A stretch of 64,000 bases of DNA from contig CAVOCU010000001.1 in NCBI GenBank assembly GCA_963694315.1, forward strand, positions 9,276 through 73,275. The letters run 5' to 3'. A program made the position numbers and the translations under genes. This DNA is from Dehalococcoidia bacterium (GTDB taxonomy: Bacteria; Chloroflexota; Dehalococcoidia; Lucifugimonadales; UBA1127). Numbering within the stretch: position 1 is the first letter of the stretch; the number at the start of each line of letters is the position of its first letter. Below the pieces are notes generated by a model. It saw only the letters and a program-made list of their open reading frames with translations, made no database searches and was not told the DNA's origin. Below are positions 6,448 through 61,620 of the stretch, in pieces.

Positions 6448-7758
6448 ATGCTTTCACAACGGGAAAACGAGCTTCTGTCTCAGGTTGGCCCCGGAACGCC
6501 TATGGGAGAGCTGTTCAGGCGGTTCTGGCTCCCTGCGTTGCTATCATCGGAGCTCCCTGAGCCGGACTGTGCACCGATACGTCTGCGGCTGCTCGGCGAA
6601 AACCTGGTGGCCTTCCGTGACACGGATGGTAAAGTCGGCGTCATCGATAACGCATGCCCACATCGTCGCGCCAGCCTGTTCTTCGGTCGCAACGAGGAGT
6701 GCGGACTCCGCTGTGTCTATCACGGCTGGAAGTTCGATGTGAACGGCGATTGCGTGGACATGCCCTCGGAGCCTGCCGAGAGCAACTTCAAAGATAAGGT
6801 CAAGATTAAGGCATACCCCGCAGAGGACTTCGGCGATTGCATCTGGATATACATGGGGCCACCGGAGTTGAAGCATGACCTGCCCCAATTCGAGTGGGCG
6901 CGTGTGCCTGCCAACCAGCGTCGGGTTTCGCGATGGATTCAGGACTGCAACTACATGCAGGCTTTGGAAGGCGACCTCGATTCGACCCACGTGTCCTTCC
7001 TGCATAGGTGGATGGACGTGGAGCAGGCCATGCCCTGGGACCCGCAGCAGAAGGAGCGACGCCGCAAGACGAATAGCGGTCAGGCGTTGTTGTACCGTGA
7101 GGGAGCCCCCCGGTTCTCCGTCAAAGAGACCGACTTTGGCATGATCTACGGTGCACGTCGACCCGCGGGCGACGACGAGTACTACTGGCGGCTCACCAAC
7201 TGGATGCTGCCCGTGTACACTATGCCGCCCCAGCCCACGTCCTGGTTTGGCCACGCATGGGTGCCGGTGGACGATGAGCATATCTCTGTGGTGTCTTTCA
7301 ACTGGAACCCCAACGAGCCGCTGAACACGCCTACGGCCAACAATTCCGGCAACATTGAGCTTGAGCGTTGCCAGATGCCCTTCCCGGACGGCTTTGTCAT
7401 AGACACATGGCGTGATGTCCGTCAGGCCACCAATGATTACAAGATTGATAGGGAGCTTCAGCGCACCGGAAACTACACGGGCATTGGGCCGCAGCGAACC
7501 CAGGACGTCATGGTCAATGAGACCCAGGGCGGGGTGTCAGACCGGACCAAGGAGCACCTGGGCACGACGGATATGGCTATCATTGCCGCGCGACGGAAGT
7601 TATTACGATTGGCCCGGGAGCTTCAGGAGGGCATAGAACCTGTGGCGGCAATGCAGGGCGATATGTATCACATTCGCGCCATTGATGTGGTGACGAGCGA
7701 GTCGGACATCGTCAGCGTCCTGGAAAAGCACGGTGACATAGGCGTCGCGACGAACTAA
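6448..7758 (+). CDS. Rieske [2Fe-2S] oxygenase, alpha-only type (paralog 1)
   Basis: CPH-x16-CVYH Rieske motif and DSTHVSFLH (D-x2-H-x4-H) mononuclear iron motif. SD GGGGAGG. Confidence 0.9.
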   Translation: MLSQRENELLSQVGPGTPMGELFRRFWLPALLSSELPEPDCAPIRLRLLGENLVAFRDTDGKVGVIDNACPHRRASLFFGRNEECGLRCVYHGWKFDVNGDCVDMPSEPAESNFKDKVKIKAYPAEDFGDCIWIYMGPPELKHDLPQFEWARVPANQRRVSRWIQDCNYMQALEGDLDSTHVSFLHRWMDVEQAMPWDPQQKERRRKTNSGQALLYREGAPRFSVKETDFGMIYGARRPAGDDEYYWRLTNWMLPVYTMPPQPTSWFGHAWVPVDDEHISVVSFNWNPNEPLNTPTANNSGNIELERCQMPFPDGFVIDTWRDVRQATNDYKIDRELQRTGNYTGIGPQRTQDVMVNETQGGVSDRTKEHLGTTDMAIIAARRKLLRLARELQEGIEPVAAMQGDMYHIRAIDVVTSESDIVSVLEKHGDIGVATN

Positions 7759-10626: not shown

Positions 10627-10684
10627 TCGCGGGCGGGTGTATACTCTCTCCAATCATGTTCAGGTATATGTAAGGGAGGGAAAA

Positions 10685-12001
10685 ATGCTAACGCAAGAAG
10701 ACAATGTACTGTTGACCAGGACAGGCCCTGGCACTGCAATGGGGGATCTCTTCCGTCGATTTTGGCAGCCGGTACTCCTGAGCGAGGAGCTACCTACCGC
10801 TGACTGCGACCCCGTTCGTATCAAGGTTCTCAGTGAGACTCTGGTGGCGTTTCGTGATACCAACGGCAACGTCGGCGTCGTCGATAACTTCTGCCCTCAT
10901 CGGCGCGCCAGCCTGTTCTTCGGTCGAAACGAAGAATGCGGCCTCCGCTGCGTCTATCACGGCTGGAAATTCGATGTGAACGGCGACTGCGTGGACATGC
11001 CGTCTGAGCCTGCCGAGAGCAACTTCAAAGACAAGGTTAAAATCAAGTCGTACCCGGCTCGCGATTACGGTAGCTGCATCTGGGTCTACATGGGTCCCGT
11101 AGAGTTGATGCCCGGGTTGCCCCAACTAGAGTGGGCCACGGCACCGGAAAGCCATCGCAACGTTCGGCGTTGGCTCCAGGAGTCCAATTACATGCAGTCC
11201 ACAGAAGGTGAGATTGATACGTCCCATGTGTCCTTCAATCACCGGTGGTTTGACCTCAGCAAAGCCCCGCGCCAGAACATTGGCAGGCGAATGAAGAACG
11301 GCCAGGCTTTGACCAACTTTGACGGCGCTCCCCAACTTACTGTCAAGGAAACCGACTACGGCTTCGTCTATGGTTCCCGAAGGGACGTGGGTGATGGCGA
11401 GTACTACTGGCGGGTAACCCAGTTCATCCTGCCCTTCTACAGCCTTATTCCCAGCCCCGGCGAGCGTGAAGGTGGCCGTTGCTGGGTGCCCATGGACGAT
11501 GAGCACATCTCCGTCTTCCAATACTCCGTCAGCACGGGTGACGCCTTCACTGACGAGCAGCGGAGGCTGATGAACGTAAGTCCTGAGAAGCTGCTTCGAG
11601 TGAAGTACAAGTTCGCTGACGGCTCGGTTGTTGATACATGGCAGCCTGAGCGACAGCTCCACAACGACTTCCTCATCGACCGAGACATGCAGCGCACGGT
11701 CAACTACACGGGTATTGCCAGCGGTCGTGAGCAGGATATGGCTATGACAGACAGCATGGGCTCCATTGGTGATCGCACCAAGGAACACCTTGGCACCAGT
11801 GACACCGCCATCATCTCTGGTCGCCGCATCCTGCTCCGCATGGCCCGTGAGTTGCAGGAGGGTATTGAGCCCTACGCCCCAGCGCACCCGGAGGTCTTTG
11901 CTGTCCGGGCCATAGACGTGGTGGACACGCAAGGTGATTTCTTCAAACTCCTGGAGGAGAAGGCGGAGTTAGGCAAGGCTCAGACTAGAGTCAGCGCCTA
12001 A
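10685..12001 (+). CDS. Rieske [2Fe-2S] oxygenase, alpha-only type (paralog 2)
   Basis: Same Rieske and DTSHVSFNH motifs. The true start is ATG 10685 behind GGGAGGG; the track ORF starts at 10637. Confidence 0.9.
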   Translation: MLTQEDNVLLTRTGPGTAMGDLFRRFWQPVLLSEELPTADCDPVRIKVLSETLVAFRDTNGNVGVVDNFCPHRRASLFFGRNEECGLRCVYHGWKFDVNGDCVDMPSEPAESNFKDKVKIKSYPARDYGSCIWVYMGPVELMPGLPQLEWATAPESHRNVRRWLQESNYMQSTEGEIDTSHVSFNHRWFDLSKAPRQNIGRRMKNGQALTNFDGAPQLTVKETDYGFVYGSRRDVGDGEYYWRVTQFILPFYSLIPSPGEREGGRCWVPMDDEHISVFQYSVSTGDAFTDEQRRLMNVSPEKLLRVKYKFADGSVVDTWQPERQLHNDFLIDRDMQRTVNYTGIASGREQDMAMTDSMGSIGDRTKEHLGTSDTAIISGRRILLRMARELQEGIEPYAPAHPEVFAVRAIDVVDTQGDFFKLLEEKAELGKAQTRVSA

Positions 12002-18598: not shown

Positions 18599-19861
18599 CT
18601 ACAGAATCATGGACTCTGCAGCTACCGCTTTCAAGGACATATCCTGCGATGCCTTCACGGCGGCTGAACGGATGCGATACAGGTCACCGTGTTGAGGGGC
18701 GTACGGCTCAATGCCTTCTTGAAAGTCAGCCAACTCTCGTAGCAGCCTGCGCCGAGCGCCGATGATGGCCGCATCTGACGTTCCTAAATGCTCTTTGTTC
18801 CTGTCGCTGATGGCTCCCATACCTTCTATTACTGCCATGTCCTGGGCTTGGATGCCCTTGATGCCGCTGTAGCTCACCGTTTGCTGCTTTGTGCGGTCAA
18901 TGAGGTAGTCATTACCCTTATTGGCATAAGCTTTATAGCTCAATGGCATCACCAGCTCGTGGAAGATGCCGCCTGTCTCGTACTCCGTGCGTTCAGCAGC
19001 CGTTAGAGCCCTGCGTGGGTGCCACGATGCTCGGAAGACCAGTGATGTGTTGTCGTCGGCAGGCACATACATGTTGCCCGTCATCACCGCATCTTCCTCT
19101 GCGGGGACTATTGTCCCGTAGGGTAGCATCCAGGGCGTGATACGCCAGTAGTACTTCCCCTCCGGCGTCGTGCGCCGCGCGCCAATGATCAGACCATACT
19201 CGGTTTCGTCCAGGACAAACCGTGGAGACTTGTCCTGTAAGGCGGTGCCCTGAGCATCGGAGTTTGACACGGTCAGTGTGTAATCGGCGGGCTTCAGGCT
19301 GCTGTGTAGGAAGCTGATGTGGCTGGAGTCTATGCCACCTTCCAATGCTTGGAGCCAATTGCATTCCTGAAGGCACTTGGTCAGAAACAGGTTTTCTTCC
19401 GGGCAGGAAGCCCACCCCAGGTCTGGAAGCTGCGGTCTGCGGTCTGGGGGCCCCATGTAGGCCCATACCACAACTCCGCGCTCTTCAGTGGGATATGCGG
19501 CTATCTTCACCTTGTTCTTGAAGTTGCTCTCTGCCGGCTCAGACGGCATGTCTACGCAGTTACCCTCTGCATCAAACTTCCAACCGTGGTAGACGCACCG
19601 CAGGCCGCATTCCTCGTTCCTGCCGAAGAACATACTTGCGCGACGGTGTGGGCAGTAGTTGTCGATGAGCCCTACTACTCCGTCCGTGTCTCTGTATGAG
19701 ATGAGTGACTCTCCAAGGATTCTCACTCGCACGGGAGGGCAGTCTGGTTGGGGTACTTCTTCAGACAGAAGTGCAGGAACCCAGTATCGGCGTAAATACT
19801 CGCCCATAGGTGTACCAGGGCCAACATGGGTCAGCAGGTCATTCTCTTCAGTGCTGAGCAT
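18599..19861 (-). CDS. Rieske [2Fe-2S] oxygenase, alpha-only type (paralog 3)
   Basis: CPH-x16-CVYH plus DSSHISFLH. Confidence 0.9.
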   Translation of the reverse strand: MLSTEENDLLTHVGPGTPMGEYLRRYWVPALLSEEVPQPDCPPVRVRILGESLISYRDTDGVVGLIDNYCPHRRASMFFGRNEECGLRCVYHGWKFDAEGNCVDMPSEPAESNFKNKVKIAAYPTEERGVVVWAYMGPPDRRPQLPDLGWASCPEENLFLTKCLQECNWLQALEGGIDSSHISFLHSSLKPADYTLTVSNSDAQGTALQDKSPRFVLDETEYGLIIGARRTTPEGKYYWRITPWMLPYGTIVPAEEDAVMTGNMYVPADDNTSLVFRASWHPRRALTAAERTEYETGGIFHELVMPLSYKAYANKGNDYLIDRTKQQTVSYSGIKGIQAQDMAVIEGMGAISDRNKEHLGTSDAAIIGARRRLLRELADFQEGIEPYAPQHGDLYRIRSAAVKASQDMSLKAVAAESMIL

Positions 19862-20244: not shown

Positions 20245-20490
20245 GTTGACGCCTCCTTCTCCTAGCTAATAACGTAGCGACCATAATAGTTAGCCGTAGC
20301 TTTGTCAACAGGTTTGTTGCTTGATTCTTGACTCGTCTGCTAGTAATTGGGCTTTTCTGGGGCTGTTTGGAAGGCGATAGCTAGGGCGGTTCTATGTCCC
20401 AACCATGTCCATATCCACTCAAAACAAGCGCTGGTCTGCCATTCGGAATCGTGTATCATGGGCGCACTTTGGGTCAGGAGGGGGTAGAGC

Positions 20491-21045
20491 ATGTCTTGGA
20501 TTAGAGAGGCAGATGAGCAAAAACCGCCCATCATCAGGGTCATGTCCATCAACCCGGCGGCTATGGATGCCGTCAGTGCTAACAACGCCAACATCACCTT
20601 TGGATCATCCGCGCTTACCAGGGTGCAGGAGGAGGTCATCTCAGGAGCGGTGTCTGCTGCCCAACTGTGTAGGTACTGAACGATGTCCCACGGAGGGTTC
20701 CTCCGTCAGCATTCAGACGACCCTGTGCTTGCCAGCCACATCATGCATGATTACACCAAAGCTGACCTTGACCCTACGACGAGGGCGATGCTCGATTTTG
20801 CGGTCAAGCTGACCAAAGAGCCGTGGTCTATGGTGAAGGGCGATGTGGAGAAGCTTCGAGATGCAGGCTTGAGCGATGAACAGATTTTGTCTGTAGTTCT
20901 TATCACCTGCAATTTCAACTTCATGGCCCGTATGGCTAACGCCCTTGGTGTGGAGCTTGGGGAGGGGCGCCAGGAGCAGATTGAAGAATGGCTCAGCCCA
21001 GAAGCTGCTGCCCAAGAGTGGCTGATGAAGGTCAAAGATGCGTAG
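20491..21045 (+). CDS. AhpD-like / carboxymuconolactone decarboxylase family protein with in-frame TGA (candidate selenocysteine) at 20677-20679
   Basis: Track ORFs 20491..20679 and 20683..21045 share a frame. The joined sequence reads ...AAQLCRY[TGA]TMSHGGFL. The TGA replaces the second Cys of the family CxxC..H motif. A hairpin lies 10 nt downstream. Confidence 0.6.
20690..20706 (+). promoter_or_regulatory. SECIS-like hairpin ACGGAGG-GUU-CCUCCGU
   Basis: 7-bp stem and a 3-nt loop starting with G. Begins 10 nt after the in-frame TGA at 20677-20679. Confidence 0.5.
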
Positions 21046-21170
21046 AAGAACAACATAGCCCGAAACAAAGCGGCCTCTCCTTCATAGGACATGGGGGTGT
21101 TTTTGGGGGTATACTCTCATCCAATTGAGTGATTTCCAGCAAGTAATTTAGGGCGTTATTCCTTTGGTGG

Positions 21171-26558: not shown

Positions 26559-26593
26559 AAAGAAAGGCCCGGGCATACGCCCGGGCCTTTCTT
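26559..26593. terminator. bidirectional terminator between convergent genes
   Basis: AGAAAGGCCCGGGC-atac-GCCCGGGCCTTTCT flanked by A and T runs. Confidence 0.8.
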
Positions 26594-26655
26594 CTTTGTT
26601 ATGTTCCTAGTAACAGAGCAATGTTCAGTCACCGTCAGGAAATATGAGTTCAGGG

Positions 26656-30980: not shown

Positions 30981-32309
30981 CTACGCCTGTTTGGCTGGTA
31001 TCAATTCCGGGTGCTCAACAAAGGCTTTCCGCAGGTGAGCGGTGCCCTCCATCCAGTCAACATCATTCGGAAGCACCACGTCGCCGGTGCGGACGCTGTA
31101 CGCCTCGGGGTTGTCCACCCCCGGAGGTGTCACGCCCTCCTGGAAGGCTCTGGCTGCGTTCAGCACCCGTCGCCTTGACTTGATGATCATGGAGTCGCTG
31201 GTGCCCAGTCGCTCCTTGGTGCGGTCTTCAACTGCGCCCATGCTCTCTGTGACCGCCTGATCTTGCAGGAATATCCCCGTGATGCCCGTGTAAATCTCGT
31301 TTTTCCGCTGAGCCTCACGGTCAATCTTGTAGTCGTTTGCTGCGTTTGCTGCCAGGTTCCAACGTCCCATGAACCCGGGCTGTGCAGGCAGGTAATCGGT
31401 CTGAGCAGCGCTTCCGCCTAGCACTTTGCCGTTGGCGTCTGTTCGCCGCCCCCCGCCCTGAACTCCTGGCGCGGTAGCAGTGACGCTCCAGAACATCGTG
31501 TGGGTATCGTCAATGGGCACCCACGCCCGGAAGCGCACCATCAGCCCCAGCGTTCCTGTAGGAATCTGGGTGTAGAAGGGTAGCAAGTAGTTTGCGAACC
31601 GCCAGTATGTAGAATCGTCTTCCGCCGGTCGGTATGCCGCGTACGTTACGCCGTAGTCCGTGTCCATCACGTTGTACTTGGGATGGCGTACGTTCACGGT
31701 GTAGTAGTCAACGGAGCCGGGTACCAGCGCCTTGGGGTCTGCGCTACCAAGGTGGAGGAACCCCAGGTGTGCCGTATCAATGTCGCCTTCAAGGGCCTGC
31801 ATCCAGTTGCAATTCCTCATGGTCAAAGCAATCGTGTAGTCCCTATCCGGGCGCATGTTCGCTTCTAGCTCAGGGAGAGCCGGGGTCTTTTCGCGAGTCC
31901 CCATGTACGTCCAGATAATGCCGTTCCGCTCCTGGCACTCGTAGGCCTTGATCTTCACTTTGTCTTTGAAGTTGCTCTCCGCCGGTTCCGATGGCATATC
32001 CACGCAGTTGCCGTTCACATCGAACTTCCATCCGTGATACACGCAGCGCAGCCCGCATTCTTCGTTGCGCCCAAAGAACATGCTTGCACGCCGGTGAGGG
32101 CAGAAGTTGTCCATGATTCCAACGTTGCCGTTGGTGTCCCGGAAGGCAATCAAGTCTTCGCCTAGTAGCCGTATGCGTACCGGGTCGCTATCGGGCTCCG
32201 CAAGCTCGCTCGACATGAGAGCTGGAATCCAGTACTCCCGCATCAACTCGCCCATCGTGGTGCCCGGGCCAACCTGGGTTAGCGTATCGTTATCGATTTG
32301 TGAAAGCAT
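30981..32309 (-). CDS. Rieske [2Fe-2S] oxygenase, alpha-only type (paralog 4)
   Basis: CPH-x16-CVYH plus DTAHLGFLH. Confidence 0.9.
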   Translation of the reverse strand: MLSQIDNDTLTQVGPGTTMGELMREYWIPALMSSELAEPDSDPVRIRLLGEDLIAFRDTNGNVGIMDNFCPHRRASMFFGRNEECGLRCVYHGWKFDVNGNCVDMPSEPAESNFKDKVKIKAYECQERNGIIWTYMGTREKTPALPELEANMRPDRDYTIALTMRNCNWMQALEGDIDTAHLGFLHLGSADPKALVPGSVDYYTVNVRHPKYNVMDTDYGVTYAAYRPAEDDSTYWRFANYLLPFYTQIPTGTLGLMVRFRAWVPIDDTHTMFWSVTATAPGVQGGGRRTDANGKVLGGSAAQTDYLPAQPGFMGRWNLAANAANDYKIDREAQRKNEIYTGITGIFLQDQAVTESMGAVEDRTKERLGTSDSMIIKSRRRVLNAARAFQEGVTPPGVDNPEAYSVRTGDVVLPNDVDWMEGTAHLRKAFVEHPELIPAKQA

Positions 32310-49804: not shown

Positions 49805-49961
49805 GGGCCTTAGGCCAACCGGTACTTTGGCTCGGAACTAAATATAGTTGCCATTCGTTTTTCGTAAGTGTCAGGTGACGCGGAGGATCTTTCTGTCTTG
49901 TTGACAGCTACGATACGCGTATGCTAGCGTGAGAAGAAGGATTTCGAAAATATCACAAACG

Positions 49962-50270
49962 CTGTGACGGGGAGTAGTAGCATAGTTCACGCTTCAGAGA
50001 GTCGGCGATAGGTGGAAAGCCGATAGCGGTTGGATTGCGAACTCGCCCCTGAGTGGAGGGAGTGAACAAGGGCGCGCCCTTGGCCCACGTTTTCTGGAAC
50101 TGGTCATACGGCTAAGCCAGATAGATGCGGGAACAAGTGAGGTTCTTTGTAGCTCCCTACGGTTGCGCCGTTACAGCAGCCTGAGGTGTTCCTTTTCATC
50201 TGAGAAGGAAAATGAGGGTGGTACCGCGGGTAGCGATGAGACCCGTCCCTGGTGGACGGGTATTTTTGTG
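49962..50270 (+). promoter_or_regulatory. T-box riboswitch leader, Leu specifier CUC (50042-50044)
   Basis: GA/K-turn, AGUA...GAA-CUC-G specifier loop, AG bay AGAGAG (49996), distal loop GGUGGAA (50011) and F-box CCGUUA (50168). The T-box AAUGAGGGUGGUACCGCG (50211-50228) matches the consensus exactly. A terminator follows. Confidence 0.9.
50241..50270 (+). terminator. T-box terminator hairpin ACCCGTCC-ctggt-GGACGGGT plus ATTTTTGTG
   Basis: 8-bp GC-rich stem followed by a U-run, 90 nt upstream of ilvB. Confidence 0.85.
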
Positions 50271-50360: not shown

Positions 50361-52055
50361 ATGAAGCTGAACGGTGGACAGATGGTATGCCAGGCCCTCT
50401 TGAACGAGGGTGTGGACACCGTCTTCGGCATCCCTGGAGGGGCAATCATGCCTCTGTACCAGATGTTGCCGCAGTTCCCAGGCCTGCGACATATCCTTGT
50501 TCGCCATGAACAGGGTGCTGCAATGGCCGCTGACGGATACGGTAGAGTGACCGGCAAGGTTGGTGTGTGTTTCGCTACATCAGGCCCCGGTGCGACCAAT
50601 CTGGTGACCGGACTGGCCGGTGCGATGATGGACTCTGTCCCGATGGTTGCCATTACGGGCCAGGTCGCTCGAGAGGCTATCGGATCGGACGCGTTCCAAG
50701 AGGCAGACGTGACCGGTGTCACTTTACCGGTAATCAAGCACAACTTCCTGGTGATGTCTGCCGAGGAACTCCCTCGGGTAATGAAAGAAGCGTTCTACCT
50801 TGCGCGTACCGGGCGACCCGGGCCTGTGCTGGTGGACGTACCTAAAGATGTGTTTGTAGAAGTGGCGGAGTTTGAATACCCGGAAACCGTTGAACTCCCG
50901 GGCTACCCGCCGAAAATGGAAGGCGACCCCGAGGCCATCAATCGGGCAGCATCACTCATAGCACAGGCCAAACGGCCAGTGATTATGGCCGGCCACGGCG
51001 TCCTCATTTCTGACGCGTACAAAGAGCTACAGGAATTTGCAGAAAAGGGCCAATTCCCGGTTACGACCACGTTGCTGGGCATCGGTTCATTCAAGTCGGA
51101 CCATGTATTGAACATCGGGTTGCCCGGGATGCACGGCTCTGCTTACGCAAACCATGCCATCAACGATTCTGACCTGCTCATCGCCCTTGGTATGCGGTTC
51201 GATGACCGTGTGACAAGCAAGGTGAGTCTGTTCGCTCCCAAGGCCAAGGTCATCCACGTGGACATTGACCCGGCAGAGCTTGGGAAGAACGTACGGCCGA
51301 CGGTGCCCATTGTGGGCGACGTGAAACATGTACTGAAGCAGCTTTTTCCCCTGGTGGAGAAGGCTGACCGACGTGAGTGGCTGTCGCACATCGAGGAGTT
51401 GCGCCGCAACCATCCATTGTTTTTTGAGGACGATGACACTCTCCGGCCTCAGGATGTGATCCAACAGATATCTGATAGCACAGAGGGTAAGGCTATCATT
51501 GCCACGGGTGTGGGTCAGCATCAGATGTGGGCAGCTCAACTGTACAAGTTCACTGAGTTCAACAGCTTCATCACCTCCGGCGGACTGGGGGCAATGGGTT
51601 TTGAGACGCCGTCAGCTATGGGCGCTCAAGTAGGTAGGCCGGACCGGGTGGTATGGACCATTGCAGGGGACGGGGGCTTCCAGATGACCATGATGGAGCT
51701 GGCCACCATGGTGGAGAACCAGATTCCCGTGAAAATTGCGCTGATAAACAACAACTCCCTGGGGATGGTTCGCCAGTGGCAAGATCTCTTTTACGACCAC
51801 GACTATGTGGCGACGTTATATACTGCCAACCCGGACTTTGTGAAGCTGGCAGAGGCCTTTGGTATCCCCGGTATCCGGGTGACCAAGAAGGACGAAGTGG
51901 GCGCTGCTGTGGCGCAGGCTATGGCGTGGAACGGGCCGGTGCTGGTGGACTTCCAGGTGGAGCAGACAGAGAATGTATACCCGTTCATCCCACCGGGAAC
52001 CGGAGTTGGCCAGATTGTGGAAGACCCAAGATTGGTGGAGAAGCGCGTACGATGA
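50361..52055 (+). CDS. ilvB: acetolactate synthase large subunit
   Basis: 564 aa with canonical AHAS blocks. SD AGGAGAG. Confidence 0.95.
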   Translation: MKLNGGQMVCQALLNEGVDTVFGIPGGAIMPLYQMLPQFPGLRHILVRHEQGAAMAADGYGRVTGKVGVCFATSGPGATNLVTGLAGAMMDSVPMVAITGQVAREAIGSDAFQEADVTGVTLPVIKHNFLVMSAEELPRVMKEAFYLARTGRPGPVLVDVPKDVFVEVAEFEYPETVELPGYPPKMEGDPEAINRAASLIAQAKRPVIMAGHGVLISDAYKELQEFAEKGQFPVTTTLLGIGSFKSDHVLNIGLPGMHGSAYANHAINDSDLLIALGMRFDDRVTSKVSLFAPKAKVIHVDIDPAELGKNVRPTVPIVGDVKHVLKQLFPLVEKADRREWLSHIEELRRNHPLFFEDDDTLRPQDVIQQISDSTEGKAIIATGVGQHQMWAAQLYKFTEFNSFITSGGLGAMGFETPSAMGAQVGRPDRVVWTIAGDGGFQMTMMELATMVENQIPVKIALINNNSLGMVRQWQDLFYDHDYVATLYTANPDFVKLAEAFGIPGIRVTKKDEVGAAVAQAMAWNGPVLVDFQVEQTENVYPFIPPGTGVGQIVEDPRLVEKRVR

Positions 52056-52717: not shown

Positions 52718-53716
52718 ATGGCTACGATGTACTACGACAAGGACGGGGATCCAGCGATATTGGAAGGCAAGACCGTTGGCATAATTGGCTACGGAAGCCA
52801 GGGCCATGCACACGCGTTGAACCTGAAGGACAGCGGCTATAACGTCATGGTTGGGCTGTATAAGGGCAGCAGCTCATGGGCTAAGGCTGAAGAGGCTGGC
52901 CTTAAGGTTGCAGAGGTATCGGAAGTTGCCCAGCAGGCTGACGTGATTATGATACTGGTGCCGGATATGAAGCAGAAGCTGGTCTACGATGAGTCTATTG
53001 CTCCGTATTTGACCTCTGGCAAGACGTTGATGTTTGCCCACGGGTTCGCCATCCACTTCAAGATGATAGTGCCTCCGGCGGATGTGGACGTCAGCATGAT
53101 TGCTCCCAAAGCCCCTGGTCACAGGATGCGTGAGATATTCACCCGCGGTATGGGTGTTCCCTCGCTGATTGCGGTATACCAGAACCCTTCAGGTCACGCG
53201 AAGGAAACGGCGTTGGGCTATGGAATTGGTGTAGGTTCCGGGCGTGCAGGGATTCTTGAGACAACCTTCAAAGAAGAGACAGAGACGGACCTCTTTGGTG
53301 AGCAGTCTGTGCTTTGCGGTGGAGTCACCTCCCTCATCAAGATGGGCTTTGAGACCCTTGTTGAGGCAGGCTATCAGCCGGAAGTTGCCTACTTTGAGTG
53401 CATGCATGAGGTGAAGCTCATTGTTGACCTGCTGTACCAGGGTGGCATGTCCTACATGCGCTACTCTATCAGCGAGACGGCGGAATACGGGGATTACAGC
53501 CGTGGCCCCCGGGTGATTGACGAGCACGTTCGGGAAACTATGCGAACAGTGCTCAAGGAGATTCAGAGCGGTGAATTCGCCAGAGAATGGATTGCTGAGA
53601 ACGACGAGGGTCTGAAGCGGTTCCAGCAGGATCGCAAAGAGGGCGCCGAGCACCCCATTGAGAAGGTTGGGGAAGAGCTGCGCTCCATGATGCCCTGGCT
53701 GCAACAGACTATCTAA
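52718..53716 (+). CDS. ilvC: ketol-acid reductoisomerase
   Basis: [16 protein letters not shown] and a class I KARI length (332 aa). Confidence 0.95.
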
Positions 53717-53769
53717 CCGAGAATTACACAGGAGTCAGATAGTTATGGCAATTGGGGAGGGTATCCGTG

Positions 53770-53810
53770 CAGTCCTCGTCCTGGAAACAGGACGAGACTG
53801 CGTTGTTTTG
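53770..53810 (+). terminator. terminator-like hairpin plus U-run inside the ilvC-leuA spacer
   Basis: CAGTC(C)TCGTCCTG-gaaa-CAGGACGAGACTG forms 13 bp with one bulge, followed by CGTTGTTTTG. It is embedded in a 29-codon ORF (53745..53834). Confidence 0.5.
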
Positions 53811-53867
53811 AAAACTCTTACTCATATCGCGTAAACACGAAGAGAAAGAGCAAGGGAGAATACGATA

Positions 53868-55418
53868 ATGGCTGAGAACAGAGTACGCATATTTGACACC
53901 ACGCTGCGTGACGGAGAGCAGGCGGCAGGTGCGTCTATGACTGGCGATGAGAAGCTGGAGATTGCTAAGCAACTCGAAAAGCTGGGAGTTGATGTCATTG
54001 AAGCTGGCTTTGCTGCGTCATCACCCGGCGACATGGAGTCAATCAAGCGCATCGCCAAAGAGATTAAGAACTCAACCGTGTGTTCATTAGCCCGGGCAAA
54101 CCCTGACGACATAGACGCGGCGTGGGAGTCCATCAAAGAAGCCGTGTATCCGCGTATCCACACGTTCATTTCAAGCTCTGACATCCATATGGAGCACCAG
54201 CTTCGGAAGAATCGCGAAGAGGTCATGGATATGGCTGTGACTGCGGTCTCCCGGGCTAAAGGGTACTGTGAGGATGTGGAGTTCTCTCCCATGGACGCCA
54301 CCCGGACAGACCCGGATTTCCTGTATGCGTTGGTTCAGGCGGCTATTGATGCAGGGGCCACGACCATCAACATCCCAGATACAGTGGGCTATGTGATACC
54401 AGAGGAATTTGGCGCACTTATCGCCAGCATCATTGAGAACGTACCCAACATAGACAAGGCAATCATCAGTGTCCACTGCCACAACGACCTGGGGCAGGCA
54501 GTGGCCAACAGCCTGGCGGCGGTGAAGGCAGGGGCGCGTCAGGTAGAGGGTTGCATCAACGGCATTGGAGAGCGGGCGGGCAACACTGCCTTGGAAGAGG
54601 TCATCATGGCCCTCCACACGCGTCGTCAGTACTTTGATACGACGGTGGGCATAGACACCACCCAGATATACCCGACCAGCCGTATGGTCAGCGAGATTAC
54701 CAATTTCCCGGTGCAGCCGAACAAGGCGATAGTTGGAACGAACTCGTTTAGGCACGCCTCTGGCATTCATCAGGACGGGATCATCAAGGAACGAACGACC
54801 TACGAGATTATGGATCCCAAAGACGTTGGCTGGGTTGGGGAGACAATGGTTCTCTCCAAGCTGAGTGGTAGGGCGGGGCTCCGATCCCGTATGGAGGAGC
54901 TAGGCTACACGTTGGACAGGGACGAGCTGAACAGAGTATTCATGTCCTTTAAAGAGCTTGCCGATAAGAAGCGTGAAGTGACGGACCGGGATCTGGAAGC
55001 CCTGATGGCAGAAGACCGCCGAGTGGAAGAGGTCACGGGCTATCACGTAGAGTCCGTAGCTATTCTGACGGGCACTGGACTGGTTCCTACGGCCACCTTG
55101 GTTATGATTACCCCGGACGGTGAGAAACGGACTGAACAGATGGAAGGCAACGGCCCGGTGGACGCTGTCTGCAATGCCGTTGTCCGCATTGTTGGGGTTC
55201 AGCCGAAATTGGACGAATACAGTGTGCGTTCTATTACTGAGGGGTTGGATGCTGTGGGTGATGTGACGGTGCGCTTGCGCTATGAGAACCATATCTACAC
55301 GGGTCGCGCTGCTCACACGGATATCCTGGTGGCCAGCGCTAAGGCGTACACCAATGCGGTGAACCGCTTACTGACCCTTGATGGCACGGAAATCCAGGGC
55401 GAGATGCAGGGCGTCTAA
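53868..55418 (+). CDS. leuA: 2-isopropylmalate synthase
   Basis: [12 protein letters not shown] and HCHNDLG motifs. 516 aa. Confidence 0.95.
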
Positions 55419-55500
55419 CAACGCAGCATCTTGCAGGCTGGGAGACAGGCGATACCCTAGCTACTATTACGAGATTACAATTTATAGTGAGGTTATAGCT

Positions 55501-56907
55501 ATGCCCGGAAAGACGATGTTTGAGAAAATTTGGGATGCTCACGTGGTGTCTGAGGAACCGGGTAAACCCTCTGTTATCTACGTGGATCTCCACTTGGTGC
55601 ATGAGGTCACATCCAACCAGGCATTTGACGGCCTGCGTATTGCCAAGCGTGGCGTCCGTCGTCCGGATCTGACGGTGGCGACCGCTGACCATGACATCCC
55701 GACCACAGACCGCTCCAAGCCCATCGCGGACCCCATTGCAGTTCAGCAGCTGGAGCACCTGGCGAACGATACCAAGGAGTTCAAAATCCAGTTTGCGGAC
55801 ATGCACAGTCCCTTGAATGGTATTGTCCACGTCATTGGGCCTGAACAGGGACATACGCAGCCGGGGAAGGTCATTGTGTGCGGAGACAGCCATACGGCCA
55901 CTCACGGCGCGTTTGGGGCCTTTGCGCTTGGCATTGGCACATCAGAAGTGGAACACGTGCTGGCCACCCAGACGTTGCGACAGACAAAGCACAAGACCAT
56001 GCAGGTGGACGTGAACGGCCCGCTGCCCTTCGGCGTCACCGCTAAAGATCTCATCCTGGCCATCATCGGGCAGATAGGCATCGCTGGAGGAACCGGATAC
56101 GTCATCGAGTACACGGGCCAGGGTGTCCGTGAACTATCGATGGAAGGCAGGATGACCTTATGTAACATGTCGATCGAGGGCGGCGCCCGGGCCGGGATGG
56201 TTGCTCCGGACGAGAAGACATTTGAGTACATGAGAGGTCGCGCCAATGTGCCTCAGGGTGATGCCTTTGACGAAGCTGTAGAGAAGTGGAAGCTGTTGCC
56301 ATCGGACGCAGACGCCGTTTACGACAGGATAGAGGTCATTGACGCAGCATCGCTTGAGCCGCATCTGACCTGGGGAACCAACCCCGGCCAGGTGGCAAGC
56401 ATATCCAGCACTGTGCCGGACCCGTCATCCTTTGCCGACCCCGCCGACCGTGAGAGCGCGGAGCGGGCACTGGCCTACATGGGTCTGGAGGCGAACACAC
56501 CGATGACCGAGGTTCCAATAGACCGTGTGTTCATTGGTTCCTGCACTAATTCCCGCATAGAGGACCTTAGGGCCGCTGCTGCGGTTGCCAAGGGCCATAA
56601 GGTGAACGCTAGGGTTGGGGCAATGGTTGTCCCGGGCTCCTACAACATTAAACAGCAGGCGGAAGCCGAGGGTCTGGACAAGATATTTATTGAAGCTGGA
56701 TTCGAGTGGCGCAATGCCGGCTGCTCCATGTGTCTGGCAATGAACCCGGACATGCTACTTCCCGGTGAGCGTTCAGCATCGACATCTAATCGCAACTTTG
56801 AAGGCAGGCAAGGCAAGGGCGGCCGAACCCACCTGGTGAGCCCGGAGATGGCTGCTGCTGCCGCTATAGCAGGGCATTTCGTGGACATACGCACCTGGGA
56901 AGGCTAG
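55501..56907 (+). CDS. leuC: 3-isopropylmalate dehydratase large subunit
   Basis: [12 protein letters not shown]-terminus and aconitase-family Cys ligands. The track ORF start 55378 is an extension. Confidence 0.95.
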
Positions 56908-57015
56908 CCCCAGAGCGAGCCTTGGACCCGGGCTACCTGGCGGGTACCAAACAGAATTTGGCGAGGCACTTGAGTAAGAAAAATTACAATCTGTAATGAA
57001 TCCTAGGAGGATACG

Positions 57016-57609
57016 ATGGAGCCATTCAAAAAGCACTCAGGCGTGGTGATGCCCCTGGACCGGGTCAACGTAGACACGGACCAAATCATCCCCAAGCAGT
57101 TCTTGAAACGGGTTGAGCGTGATGGGTATGAGGATTTCCTGTTCTTTGACTGGCGCTTTGACGCAGATGGGACGCCGAACAAGGATTTTGTGCTGAACCA
57201 CCCGGGCTACAAAGACGCGTCCGTGTTGGTGGCTGGTAGGAACTTTGGATGCGGTTCATCGCGAGAACATGCACCCTGGGCACTTCAGCAGTACGGGTTC
57301 AAGGCAATCATCTCACCAAGCTATGCAGACATCTTTTACAACAACTGCTTCCAGAATGGCTTGCTTCCGGTGACGCTGGACGAGGTCTCCGTGGCGCATA
57401 TCACGGCGCAGGCCAAGGAGATTCCTGGCTACGAGGTGACCGTTGACCTGGAGAACTGTGTAGTCTCTGACAGTGAGGGTTTCAGAGCTTCTTTCAGTCT
57501 GGACGAGTTTAAGCAGTATTGCTTGCTGAACGGCCTGGACGATATTGGCATCACCCTTCAGGATGAGGGCGCTATCACGGCGTACGAAGCAAAGCAGCAG
57601 GGCGCGTAG
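57016..57609 (+). CDS. leuD: 3-isopropylmalate dehydratase small subunit
   Basis: VNVDTDQIIPKQFL and GRNFGCGSSREHA. SD AGGAGG. Confidence 0.95.
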   Translation: MEPFKKHSGVVMPLDRVNVDTDQIIPKQFLKRVERDGYEDFLFFDWRFDADGTPNKDFVLNHPGYKDASVLVAGRNFGCGSSREHAPWALQQYGFKAIISPSYADIFYNNCFQNGLLPVTLDEVSVAHITAQAKEIPGYEVTVDLENCVVSDSEGFRASFSLDEFKQYCLLNGLDDIGITLQDEGAITAYEAKQQGA

Positions 57610-58764: not shown

Positions 58765-59101
58765 ATTCAGCTACGAACTGTGGAAGGGATACCCTGCCGT
58801 CTTGGACTGCATACTCTTGACGTTGGAGCTGCGGCTTTCTATGCTGCGGCTCGACGAATGTATGAGGAGTGTGGCCACGCCAGAGTTTACGCTGCACCTG
58901 AATCAGGAGCTGAAGCGTGACGTGCCATCTAAGGCTGTGCCGATAATAGACAACGGACGCGGCGGCCTGTGTTTTATCTGATGCTGGCAGAGGAACCGAG
59001 CATGGCCCATGTGGACGTTGATGAGTGGACTACGGTGAATCCACTGGTAGAGGTAGTGCCTGCAGGGTAAGACGTGTCAGTCTGATTTGGGATATAAAAA
59101 G

Positions 59102-59133
59102 GAAGAGGCTCGGGTTTATTCCCGGGCCTCTTC
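59102..59133 (-). terminator. intrinsic terminator of the Rieske5-amidohydrolase operon
   Basis: On the minus strand, GAAGAGGCCCGGG-aataaa-CCCGAGCCTCTTC followed by CTTTTTTAT. Confidence 0.8.
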
Positions 59134-59152
59134 TTAATGACAAGAACGTTCT

Positions 59153-60360: not shown

Positions 60361-61620
60361 CTAGACCAGAGCGTGCCCTGGGTCCAAGGGACGAGCCTCC
60401 TGCCAGGTGATGTTTGCGGGCTTCGTAAAGTCATCACCGCGGATGAGTTCATAGGTGATGGACGCAGCCAACCCGGGCGGATCTATGCCGTCAGTGTAGC
60501 CGCGGACAGAGTCTGCCAGCAGTCGCCGCATCGCGATGATGGCGCGGTCGCTGGTGCCAAGGTGCTCCCGCGTGCGGTCATAGATGGCTCCCATGGTCTC
60601 CTGGACGGCGTGGTCCTGGGTGCGTGTGCCGAAGATGCCTGAGAAGCCCCGGGACTTCATTGCCTCCCGGTCTTGCAGATACCAATTATCGAAGTTTCTC
60701 GCCTTCCGAAACCCGGGTTGCAGGTCATGGAAGCCGAACTGCTCAATGCGGTCTGCGCGCTCCTGGGCTGTGAAAGGACGCTCCTCGTTGAAGCCGATCT
60801 CCCACTGCCAACAACTGAAATCATCGCGAGGCACCCAGATGGAAAAGCCGGTGGTGCGGCCAGGAGCCCCGGGAATGTAGGCATAGAACGGAAGGATATA
60901 GGGCGTCATGCGCACGTACTCCTCGCTGTCGCTGGCTCGCCTGACGGCGGCGTACCTGTAACCGTAAGACGTGTACTCAACCTCCAGGCGTGGGGCAGTG
61001 TCCTTCATCACAAGGGCGTTTACCGGATTTCCCCACCCGGTGCGTACCCCGCTGAAAGAGCGGTGCAGGAACGAGGCGTGGGAAGAGTCTATGCCACCCT
61101 CTAATCCTTGGAGGTAGTTGCTTTCTTGAATGGTCTTGATGAGCACAAGGTGATCATCCGTCACCTTTGTCCACTGGAAGGCTGGGAACGGGGGGAGTTT
61201 ATCTGCCGGCCCCATATACGCCCACACAATGCCTGCCACTTCCTGAACCGGATAGGCCCGGGCCTGCACCTTATCTTTGAAGTTGCTGGCGGAGGGTTCT
61301 GAGGGCATGTCCAGGCAGTTGCCGTCAACATCGAATTTCCAGCCGTGGTAGATACACGTTAGGCCGCAGTCCTCGTTGCGACCCAAGGCCAGGGATGCGC
61401 CGCGATGGGGGCAGTACTCTTCCATAACGCCTACCTTCCCATTGGTATCGCGGAAGGCAATCAAATCCTCGCCCAGGAGTTTGAGGCGTATGGGAGTGCC
61501 GTCGTGTTCGCGGATTTCGCTTGCTATGAAGGCCGGTATCCAGAACCGACGCATCATTTCACCCAAGGGCGTACCCCGGTCAGTCCGAGTGATGAGATTG
61601 TTCTCTTCCTTGGTCAGCAT
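60361..61620 (-). CDS. Rieske [2Fe-2S] oxygenase, alpha-only type (paralog 5, most divergent)
   Basis: CPH-x16-CIYH plus DSSHASFLH. Confidence 0.9.
   Translation of the reverse strand: MLTKEENNLITRTDRGTPLGEMMRRFWIPAFIASEIREHDGTPIRLKLLGEDLIAFRDTNGKVGVMEEYCPHRGASLALGRNEDCGLTCIYHGWKFDVDGNCLDMPSEPSASNFKDKVQARAYPVQEVAGIVWAYMGPADKLPPFPAFQWTKVTDDHLVLIKTIQESNYLQGLEGGIDSSHASFLHRSFSGVRTGWGNPVNALVMKDTAPRLEVEYTSYGYRYAAVRRASDSEEYVRMTPYILPFYAYIPGAPGRTTGFSIWVPRDDFSCWQWEIGFNEERPFTAQERADRIEQFGFHDLQPGFRKARNFDNWYLQDREAMKSRGFSGIFGTRTQDHAVQETMGAIYDRTREHLGTSDRAIIAMRRLLADSVRGYTDGIDPPGLAASITYELIRGDDFTKPANITWQEARPLDPGHALV

Follow-up and report, generated by a model that had tools for sequence, protein, structure and literature searches.

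Two open reading frames on the forward strand of the window (the whole 64-kb stretch of Dehalococcoidia DNA analyzed here) raise the question of whether an in-frame TGA ends a gene or encodes selenocysteine (Sec) within a longer one. The ORFs, 20491-20679 and 20683-21045, share one frame, which runs from ATG 20491 to TGA 20677-20679, through a single ACG codon to ATG 20683, and on to TAG 21043-21045. A sequence-only reading of the window had joined them into one 184-aa AhpD-like selenoprotein, with the TGA at the second Cys of a CxxC motif and a SECIS-like hairpin behind it. Our analysis leads to the same reading, to which we assign a probability of about 0.9: positions 20491 to 21045 are most likely one Sec-encoding AhpD-like gene, with Sec at UGA 20677-20679. 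The features of the locus are collected in Table 1.

Table 1. Features of the AhpD-like locus, with positions counted from the first nucleotide of the window
Feature	Position	Strand	Remarks
SD-like AGGAGGGGG	20476..20484	+	6 nt 5' of the start codon; read from the sequence
Single CDS, AhpD-like (TIGR01926) protein, 184 residues	20491..21045	+	TGA 20677-20679 read as predicted Sec63; stop TAG 21043-21045
Glu48 codon GAG, acid of the E-x11-C relay motif	20632..20634	+	Matched by a conserved Glu in the PDB homologs
Cys60 codon TGT, first residue of C-x-x-U, presumed resolving thiol	20668..20670	+	Cys in 77/77 orthologs
In-frame TGA, predicted Sec63 codon	20677..20679	+	TGA in 76/80 species genomes and in the window
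His67 codon CAC of C-x-x-U-x3-H	20689..20691	+	Last two bases begin the hairpin
SECIS-type hairpin ACGGAGG-GUU-CCUCCGU	20690..20706	+	7-bp stem 20690-20696/20700-20706, GUU loop 20697-20699
Terminator-like hairpin and T-run	21079..21107	+	34 nt after the stop; 7-pair stem, then TGTTTTTGGG; consensus scan only

Read through the TGA, the product consists of 62 residues, Sec, Thr, and a further 120 residues, 184 in all, and around the stop it reads ...QEEVISGAVSAAQLCRY[TGA]TMSHGGFLRQH (VSAAQLCRY[TGA]TMSHGGFLRQH). Profile searches were run with Cys in place of the TGA-encoded residue. The joined protein matched TIGR01926 (“peroxidase-related enzyme,” NCBIfam, AhpD core) with 121.5 bits, compared to a cutoff of 81.8, residues 10 to 154 falling on profile positions 26 to 173 of 178. 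All five NCBIfam matches are AhpD or peroxidase-related models, and the Pfam CMD domain was matched at 1.2e-9. Five PDB entries (3c1l, 2prr, 2pfx, 6k40, and 2oyo) matched over ~140 residues, with E values from 2e-23 to 1e-18. The product is very probably a thiol/selenol oxidoreductase of the AhpD-like type (TIGR01926/COG2128, CMD fold), in which Sec is predicted to replace the catalytic second Cys. Two narrower assignments were tried and rejected. The AhpD core-domain model TIGR00778 gave 26.3 bits, just under its cutoff of 27.8, which speaks against an AhpD orthologue; and a PcaC-type 4-carboxymuconolactone decarboxylase was likewise set aside, as the generic Pfam CMD domain matched and no decarboxylase-specific model did.

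The TGA falls at the second redox-motif Cys, a conserved position, because the PDB alignments place it there and Cys is the modal residue at this column. In the three alignments inspected, the CyyC/ClyC/CfyC...HG of 3c1l, 2prr, and 2pfx falls exactly on C-R-Y-TGA...HG. A search of 1.84 billion cluster representatives returned 123 that span the TGA column, and 72 of these have Cys there (Gly, 26; Ser, 7; Trp, 5; Leu, 4; others, 9). The profile score of the joined protein, the frame conserved across the TGA (see below), and these alignments uphold both the merging of the two ORFs into one 184-aa gene and the placement of the TGA that the sequence-only reading had proposed. The motif has the spacing E48-x11-C60-x-x-[TGA]63-x3-H67, and in the PDB alignments Cys60 pairs with the first Cys of CxxC.

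A scan of species-representative genomes yielded 80 loci, all from Dehalococcoidia, Chloroflexota, or SAR202 MAGs. The codon is TGA in 76 of the 80 species genomes, at protein identities of 61 to 93%, and these 76 loci together with the window make up the set of 77 TGA orthologs (75 distinct sequences) used throughout. All 76 loci encode a conserved in-frame peptide 5' of the TGA, ...ITFGxSALTRVQEEAIATxVSxxNxCR[Y/F]. The EE pair at Glu48 is conserved across the 77 orthologs; residue 67 is His in 76 of them and is always encoded by CAC, the gene's other His codons being both CAT and CAC. The MSWIRE start and its Shine-Dalgarno (SD) sequence are also conserved, and a motif of the GGAGG or GAGG type lies at an equal distance 5' of this start in five related loci (L004 to L007 and L016). 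Compared with 15 orthologs, dN/dS is 0.02 to 0.32 upstream of the TGA and 0.03 to 0.16 downstream, with synonymous sites near saturation. These values point to purifying selection on both halves flanking the TGA.

Such conservation bears on one alternative, namely, that the locus is a pseudogene or an error, i.e., a Cys-type gene with a nonsense mutation or with a TGC/TGT miscalled as TGA. Gene callers everywhere do give two fragments, and real decay or truncation is seen in a few relatives: the four loci outside the TGA set (L055, L059, L071, and L083) are truncated remnants, since the whole upstream half is missing from them. However, the TGA occupies the same codon in nearly all of the species genomes, none of the 80 loci has TGC or TGT at this position, and TAA or TAG never takes its place among the 77 orthologs. 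The dN/dS values lie well below 1 on both sides, and the frame is not otherwise disrupted. The 555-nt gene also occurs, without a single difference from the window at the TGA, the hairpin, or elsewhere, in four independent assemblies (one from JGI, two from ENA, and one from Logan), whose separate origins make a shared erroneous reference implausible. Four identical assemblies and a conserved TGA thus exclude both a sequencing error and a decaying pseudogene, and the probability that we leave to either is practically nil. Further frameshifts, homologs without a conserved Cys at the column, and a codon resolved as TGC or TGT had been named beforehand as signs against a selenoprotein; the locus has no extra frameshifts, Cys is conserved in the homologs, and the TGA recurs in the independent assemblies.

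Gene callers stop at the same TGA in very many contigs. Index entries for the exact 120-aa product occur in 48 blocks of an assembly collection, and among the best 120 matches in a collection of 5.8 billion proteins, most are 119 to 120 aa long and begin with MSHGG or MAHGG. “Full-length” database proteins are rare. We had suspected that the Trp or Gly at the TGA column of full-length homologs came from gene calling under genetic code 4 or 25; this was rejected for the three proteins that were checked at the DNA level, which have real TGG, CGA, and GGC codons there. The TGG and CGA codons each differ from TGA by one base and lie in singleton contigs of ~1 kb in which the hairpin is still perfect. 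Errors or very recent mutations probably account for these two. The protein with GGC comes from a diverged sister clade.

A further possibility is that TGA has been reassigned genome-wide, to Trp (code 4) or Gly (code 25), in line with the W or G at the column in some database homologs. TGA is indeed the rarest stop in the window, ending 5 of 45 genes, some of them in overlapping ATGA stop-start junctions. Against this stand the 44 long ORFs of the window, which comprise 16,000 codons (75% of the window) and have zero in-frame TGAs, compared to ~435 predicted without constraint from the 2.7% TGA frequency of their off-frames. The five genes ending in TGA and the TGG, CGA, and GGC codons of the checked W, R, and G homologs tell against it as well. 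Among 85 in-frame-TGA read-through candidates in the window, the AhpD-like gene is the only one that is protein-like on both sides. The TGA counts in the long ORFs exclude reassignment to either code, and we give it hardly any probability. The screen covered genes with 35 or more codons on either side of a TGA, and within that range it found no other selenoprotein genes in the 64-kb window.

Alternatively, the locus could be a true split gene, in which termination at the TGA is followed by reinitiation at AUG 20683 to give proteins of 62 and 120 aa that may assemble with each other, either as the sole output or as a second one when selenium is scarce. What speaks for it is that the AUG two codons after the UGA is kept in 72 of the 77 orthologs. 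Met at this position is specific to the TGA clade, the Cys-type homologs having L, V, T, or A there. Yet the AUG is replaced by CTA, GCA, CTG, or TTG in the other five orthologs, it has no conserved SD sequence, and the codon at position -2 relative to it varies freely (CGC, CGG, CGA, CGT, AGA, and AGG). The downstream ATG is therefore not an independent start, and the observation in the sequence-only reading that the downstream half lacks an SD sequence of its own holds across the orthologs. A split would also sever the active site between Cys60 and His67, and would leave unexplained a stop that is always TGA and a hairpin with an invariant loop G and a covarying closing pair. We consider termination and reinitiation to be quite unlikely. 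There is similarly a slim chance that the Dehalococcoidia/SAR202 clade makes two products, a selenoenzyme when Sec-tRNA is available and, under scarce selenium, the products of UGA termination and reinitiation at the clade-specific AUG.

The hairpin begins 10 to 11 nt after the UGA, inside the codons for His67 to Arg72 (HGGFLR), and it appears in the minimum-free-energy fold. We compared it with the published bacterial SECIS consensus model (PMC13188914, Fig. 2). The apical loop has 3 nt (model, 3 to 9 nt) and the upper stem 7 bp (model, 4 to 16 bp; RNAalifold consensus, 6 bp). The loop reads G-U-U, with the G in first place, where the model calls for a G in loop position 1 or 2 with G or U after it. 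The spacing from UGA to loop is 17 nt, 20680-20696 (model, 16 to 37 nt), and the free energy of the 17-nt element alone is -9.8 kcal/mol (model, -7.5 kcal/mol or lower). The hairpin that had been read from the single sequence as a 17-nt SECIS-like element 10 nt after the TGA thus agrees with the model in each of these respects.

The signal in the single sequence is weak. A 60-nt fold has z = 0.02 relative to shuffles, and 70 of the 2,182 UGA triplets in the window (3.2%) precede a hairpin passing the same SECIS criteria, so the hairpin in the lone sequence is not beyond chance. The comparative pattern, i.e., conservation of the TGA, pairing across orthologs, identical assemblies, and a unique read-through candidate, is far beyond chance. 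The hairpin is kept in all 77 TGA sequences. Paired cells amount to 97.7% over the 75 distinct sequences, compared to 42 to 62% when the 3' partners are slid. The loop G, a third codon position, and the first loop U are invariant in 77/77; the loop-closing pair is G-C in 45 sequences, A-U in 22, and C-G in 4. The covariation score is 0.207, compared to an average of 0.121 for 500 shuffles, none of which attains 0.207, with changes on both sides seen in only two pairs and three pairs never varying. Covariation crosses the genetic code: Gly69 changes to Glu (GGG to GAG) together with TTC to TTT, and Gly69 changes to Ala (GCG) together with Phe70 to Leu (TTG).

Part of the sequence conservation of the hairpin is protein derived, since it overlaps the conserved peptide HGGFLR. 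Synonymous sites, however, are frozen only within the stem: His67 is CAC in 76/76, Gly69 is GGG in 47/47, Leu71 is CTC in 74/77, and Arg72 is CGT in 68/77. Gly68 uses GGA or GGG only, each able to pair with U. Arg61, just upstream of the stem, is unconstrained (CGC, 32; CGG, 27; CGA, 8; CGT, 5). In four of five diverged relatives without the TGA, the stem is down to 5 of 7 pairs. Together with the pairing and the covariation, the codon pattern argues that selection acts on the hairpin structure itself and not just on the peptide. The single-sequence fold also pointed to a lower stem (20682-20686/20709-20713), which was rejected, being only 61% paired across orthologs. No Rfam match was found for 20600-20800 at E values of up to 10, and a scan of the whole window at the gathering thresholds returned a T-box only; this null carries no weight for the hairpin, as no Rfam model captures such a small one. 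At locus L011, the catalytic His codon is altered such that one hairpin base pair is restored. Cys revertants are wholly absent, in that no species shows the one-step change from TGA to TGY. The missing TGY change and the altered His codon fit the idea that Sec may be irreplaceable at this position.

Stable hairpins downstream of stop codons can promote read-through generally. The hairpin could then merely slow termination, with a near-cognate tRNA inserting Trp, Cys, or Arg at the UGA independently of any SECIS; Sec insertion here is itself a prediction. This explanation has to contend with a UGA at the catalytic Cys position of a protein family for which Sec forms are documented, with relatives that are published Sec users, and with a hairpin that has SelB-type features (a small loop with G first and a 17-nt spacing). 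Moreover, the motif would lose its activity if Trp or Arg stood in place of the nucleophile. We regard SECIS-independent read-through as highly improbable and keep to the Sec-encoding gene.

Sec decoding would require the corresponding machinery. ARAGORN found no tRNA in the 64-kb window, hence no tRNASec, and among the 18 tRNAs detected in 83 loci and the window, none was tRNASec. An ORF survey did not find selA, selB, or selD in the 64-kb window, nor did tblastn searches of ~1.4 Mb of flanking sequence from relatives give a match, with E. coli SelA, SelB, and SelD as baits. Since the window is a few percent of a ~3-Mb genome, the absence of sel genes and tRNASec is expected by chance. Indirect support comes from the lineage. 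BSepDB, whose search was limited to genomes having two or more of SelA, SelB, and SelD, lists among its top ten by selenoprotein count Dehalococcoidia bacterium UBA1141, with 49 genes, and isolate 10f4566d, with 46 genes (PMC13326102). We found TGA orthologs of the AhpD-like gene in both UBA1141 (L022 and L030) and isolate 10f4566d (L018 and L041). The genome under study is a probable Sec user. A literature search on SAR202 and selenocysteine found nothing relevant. Of the related loci, seven contain a further AhpD-like paralog, ...NKCQY[TGA]TLAH..., with its own hairpin.

The window is syntenic with L004 and L005 (~71 to 81% nucleotide identity in aligned blocks) and with L006 and L016 (~70 to 80%), which places it in a related Dehalococcoidia lineage outside the set of species representatives. 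The neighborhood of the AhpD-like gene is conserved in relatives. The neighbor genes encode a LigXa-type Rieske oxygenase, a PEP-mutase/isocitrate-lyase family protein, a dienelactone hydrolase, a bicupin, and an aldo-keto reductase, as well as a DUF5679 protein, a receiver-domain protein, a SnoaL-like protein, a GH15 glycosidase, and a FIST protein. This setting suggests oxidative catabolism, in which an antioxidant enzyme would be plausible; given the neighbor genes of the aromatic-catabolism type, a role of the AhpD-like protein tied to an aromatic pathway is possible as well. The predicted terminator suggests that the gene is a monocistronic unit.

Following the established bacterial Sec pathway, the 17-nt hairpin would act as the SECIS element. 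A complex of SelB, GTP, and Sec-tRNASec would bind the apical loop, whose first base is G, with the ribosome positioned at the UGA, and after insertion of Sec63 translation would run on to TAG 21043. In the enzyme, a proton-relay motif, E48-x11-C60-x-x-U63-x3-H67, may have Sec63 as its nucleophile, with activation by way of His67 and Glu48; the relay role of Glu48 is one that we take over from Glu118 of Mycobacterium tuberculosis AhpD. By the same analogy, the chemistry would be of the peroxidase type, Sec63 attacking its presumed physiological substrate, a peroxide or an oxidized partner such as a peroxiredoxin. Resolution of the intermediate would next fall to Cys60, giving a selenenylsulfide that a cellular reductant could recycle.

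The practical consequences are for annotation. The gene is reported as two hypothetical proteins of 62 and 120 aa in the public contigs examined, and merging them reveals a hidden redox enzyme. Because of the mis-split, selenoproteins are undercounted in Dehalococcoidia of the SAR202 type, which are abundant in the deep ocean. The 77 orthologs also provide a clean natural example of a predicted minimal 17-nt SECIS inside an active-site peptide, HGGFLR, where amino acid and synonymous changes covary such that the stem is preserved.

Known systems place the gene closely. M. tuberculosis AhpD, an alkylhydroperoxidase and AhpC reductase with Glu118, Cys130-x-x-Cys133, and His137 as its motif, has the identical E-x11-C-x-x-[C/U]-x3-H spacing and belongs to the same CMD/AhpD-core fold family; the gene here differs by the predicted Sec in place of the second Cys. 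The structurally solved homologs 3c1l (Mlr4105), 2prr, 2pfx, 2oyo, and 6k40 (AhpD) are all Cys forms, with CxxC...HG aligned on C-R-Y-U...HG, and from the motif His onward they read HGAAVR or HGAILR in place of the hairpin-encoding HGGFLR of the gene described here. For the hairpin, the reference is the E. coli fdhF SECIS, which Liu et al. reportedly described in 1998 as a hairpin of ~17 nt that follows the UGA at ~11 nt and whose apical loop contains an essential G. Size, spacing, and loop G are alike; the hairpin studied here differs in its perfect 7 bp, its 3-nt GUU loop, the lack of a bulged U, and the absence of sequence similarity. A minimal SECIS construct of 20 nt, ATCGGTTGCAGGTCTGCACC, has also been published (PMC10945757).

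Among Sec-containing families, NF041238 (AhpD_rel_CFYUT, an alkylhydroperoxidase-related (seleno)protein, the Sargasso “hypothetical protein 1”) shares the AhpD-related domain and has CFYUT where the gene has CRYUT. Membership was rejected, with 62.7 bits compared to a cutoff of 175: that family is about twice as long, and the gene matches just the C-terminal half of the 357-position profile (positions 176 to 345). The proper counterpart is the AhpD-like selenoprotein family (COG2128, CxxU), newly reported from the Sargasso Sea by Zhang et al. in 2005, when it comprised 27 sequences and a SECIS was predicted for it (PMC1088965). As “AhpD-like 1,” it was later the fourth most abundant selenoprotein family of the GOS data, with 299 Sec and 902 Cys forms (Zhang and Gladyshev 2008, PMC2398784), and it appears in a 2026 review under “AhpD-like protein, TIGR01926, CxxU” (PMC13188914). 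The statement in the sequence-only reading that AhpD-like proteins are a known Sec/Cys family is thus amply documented. Because the family has been known since 2005, our result is an annotation correction and no discovery: the gene is an instance of a catalogued CxxU family in a lineage published as selenoprotein rich, and it opens no new question, since the family, the motif, and the selenoprotein richness of Dehalococcoidia have all been published. Likened by profile and motif rather than through the reference sequences AACY01418594 and MCB9421940.1, the gene and the AhpD-like selenoprotein family share the TIGR01926 profile, Sec at the second Cys of the motif (predicted in the present gene), a small G-containing hairpin, and an origin in uncultured marine bacteria, and nothing essential differs between them.

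At the Sec column of the AhpD-like gene, neither Cys codon (TGC or TGT) occurs in any of the 80 species-representative loci (L004-L083), and the only sense variants observed are TGG and CGA, both on singleton short contigs. The Cys codons are nonetheless just one step away from TGA; either this clade disfavors Cys at the site, or variants of this kind occur very seldom. The AUG two codons past the Sec-UGA (window positions 20683-20685; columns 7-9 of alignment A3) is present in 72 of the 77 TGA-clade orthologs. Met is found at this position only in the TGA clade, with L, V, T or A in Cys-type homologs; the conserved AUG may be mere sequence context or a re-initiation codon.

One genome, represented by the related locus L011 (9995-10048; A3 columns 14 and 30), carries two changes in the hairpin, CAC to CTC, which replaces the presumed catalytic His67 with Leu, and CGT to CGA. 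Together they turn the outermost A-U pair into U-A, so that the RNA pair is retained at the apparent cost of His67, although this double change could be an assembly quirk.

A sister clade with 45-51% identity contains Gly instead of Sec (CRY-G-ALTHGGF; locus L002, 3001-3930, and database homologs P0102 and P0122-P0135), the Gly codon in L002 being a genuine GGC. The redox nucleophile is lost in this clade, the hairpin is degraded, and the proteins have long, low-complexity C-terminal tails of up to 486 aa. A DDE transposase adjoins the gene in L002.

Seven related loci have a second, more divergent AhpD-like paralog 1-3 kb away from the first, of which the window holds no copy. In this paralog, too, the second Cys position is occupied by an in-frame TGA (...NKCQY[TGA]TLAH...), and the downstream hairpin differs from that of the first gene.

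Features of the window and of related loci (L handles)
Feature	Sequence	Positions	Strand	Details
Second AhpD-like paralog	L030	6407-7084	-	
Second AhpD-like paralog	L041	6478-7155	-	
Second AhpD-like paralog	L056	7526-8191	-	
Second AhpD-like paralog	L065	4869-5534	-	
Second AhpD-like paralog	L068	8454-9131	-	
Second AhpD-like paralog	L070	3-695	-	
Second AhpD-like paralog	L073	2522-3199	-	
T-box leader	Window	49955-50253	+	Rfam RF00230, 110.9 bits vs gathering score 93
Very stable hairpin	Window	~26573-26606		13-14 bp, -24 kcal/mol; at gene end
Very stable hairpin	Window	~59100-59135		13-14 bp, -24 kcal/mol; at gene end
Rieske oxygenase paralog	Window	6448-7758	+	
Rieske oxygenase paralog	Window	10637-12001	+	
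Rieske oxygenase paralog	Window	18599-19861	-	
Rieske oxygenase paralog	Window	30981-32309	-	
Rieske oxygenase paralog	Window	60361-61620	-	

Stop codon usage in the 45 long open reading frames of the whole window is skewed (TAG 22, TAA 18, TGA 5), and at least two of the five TGA codons overlap a start codon within ATGA. The two very stable hairpins have a common core, GGCCCGGG...CCCGGGCC; probably they either act as terminators, strong or bidirectional, or are copies of one small repeated element.

The T-box leader is a tRNA-sensing riboswitch belonging to a branched-chain amino-acid operon. Directly downstream lies an acetolactate-synthase-like gene (50361-52055), followed by genes (52718-57609) that, judged by their sequence, look like ilvC, leuA, leuC and leuD.

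Rieske and LigXa_C domains were detected by profile in one of the five Rieske oxygenase paralogs, and its N-terminal sequence recurs in the other four. Luciferase-like monooxygenase-type and amidohydrolase-type open reading frames accompany the five genes. Such an expansion of Rieske paralogs is typical of SAR202-type Dehalococcoidia.
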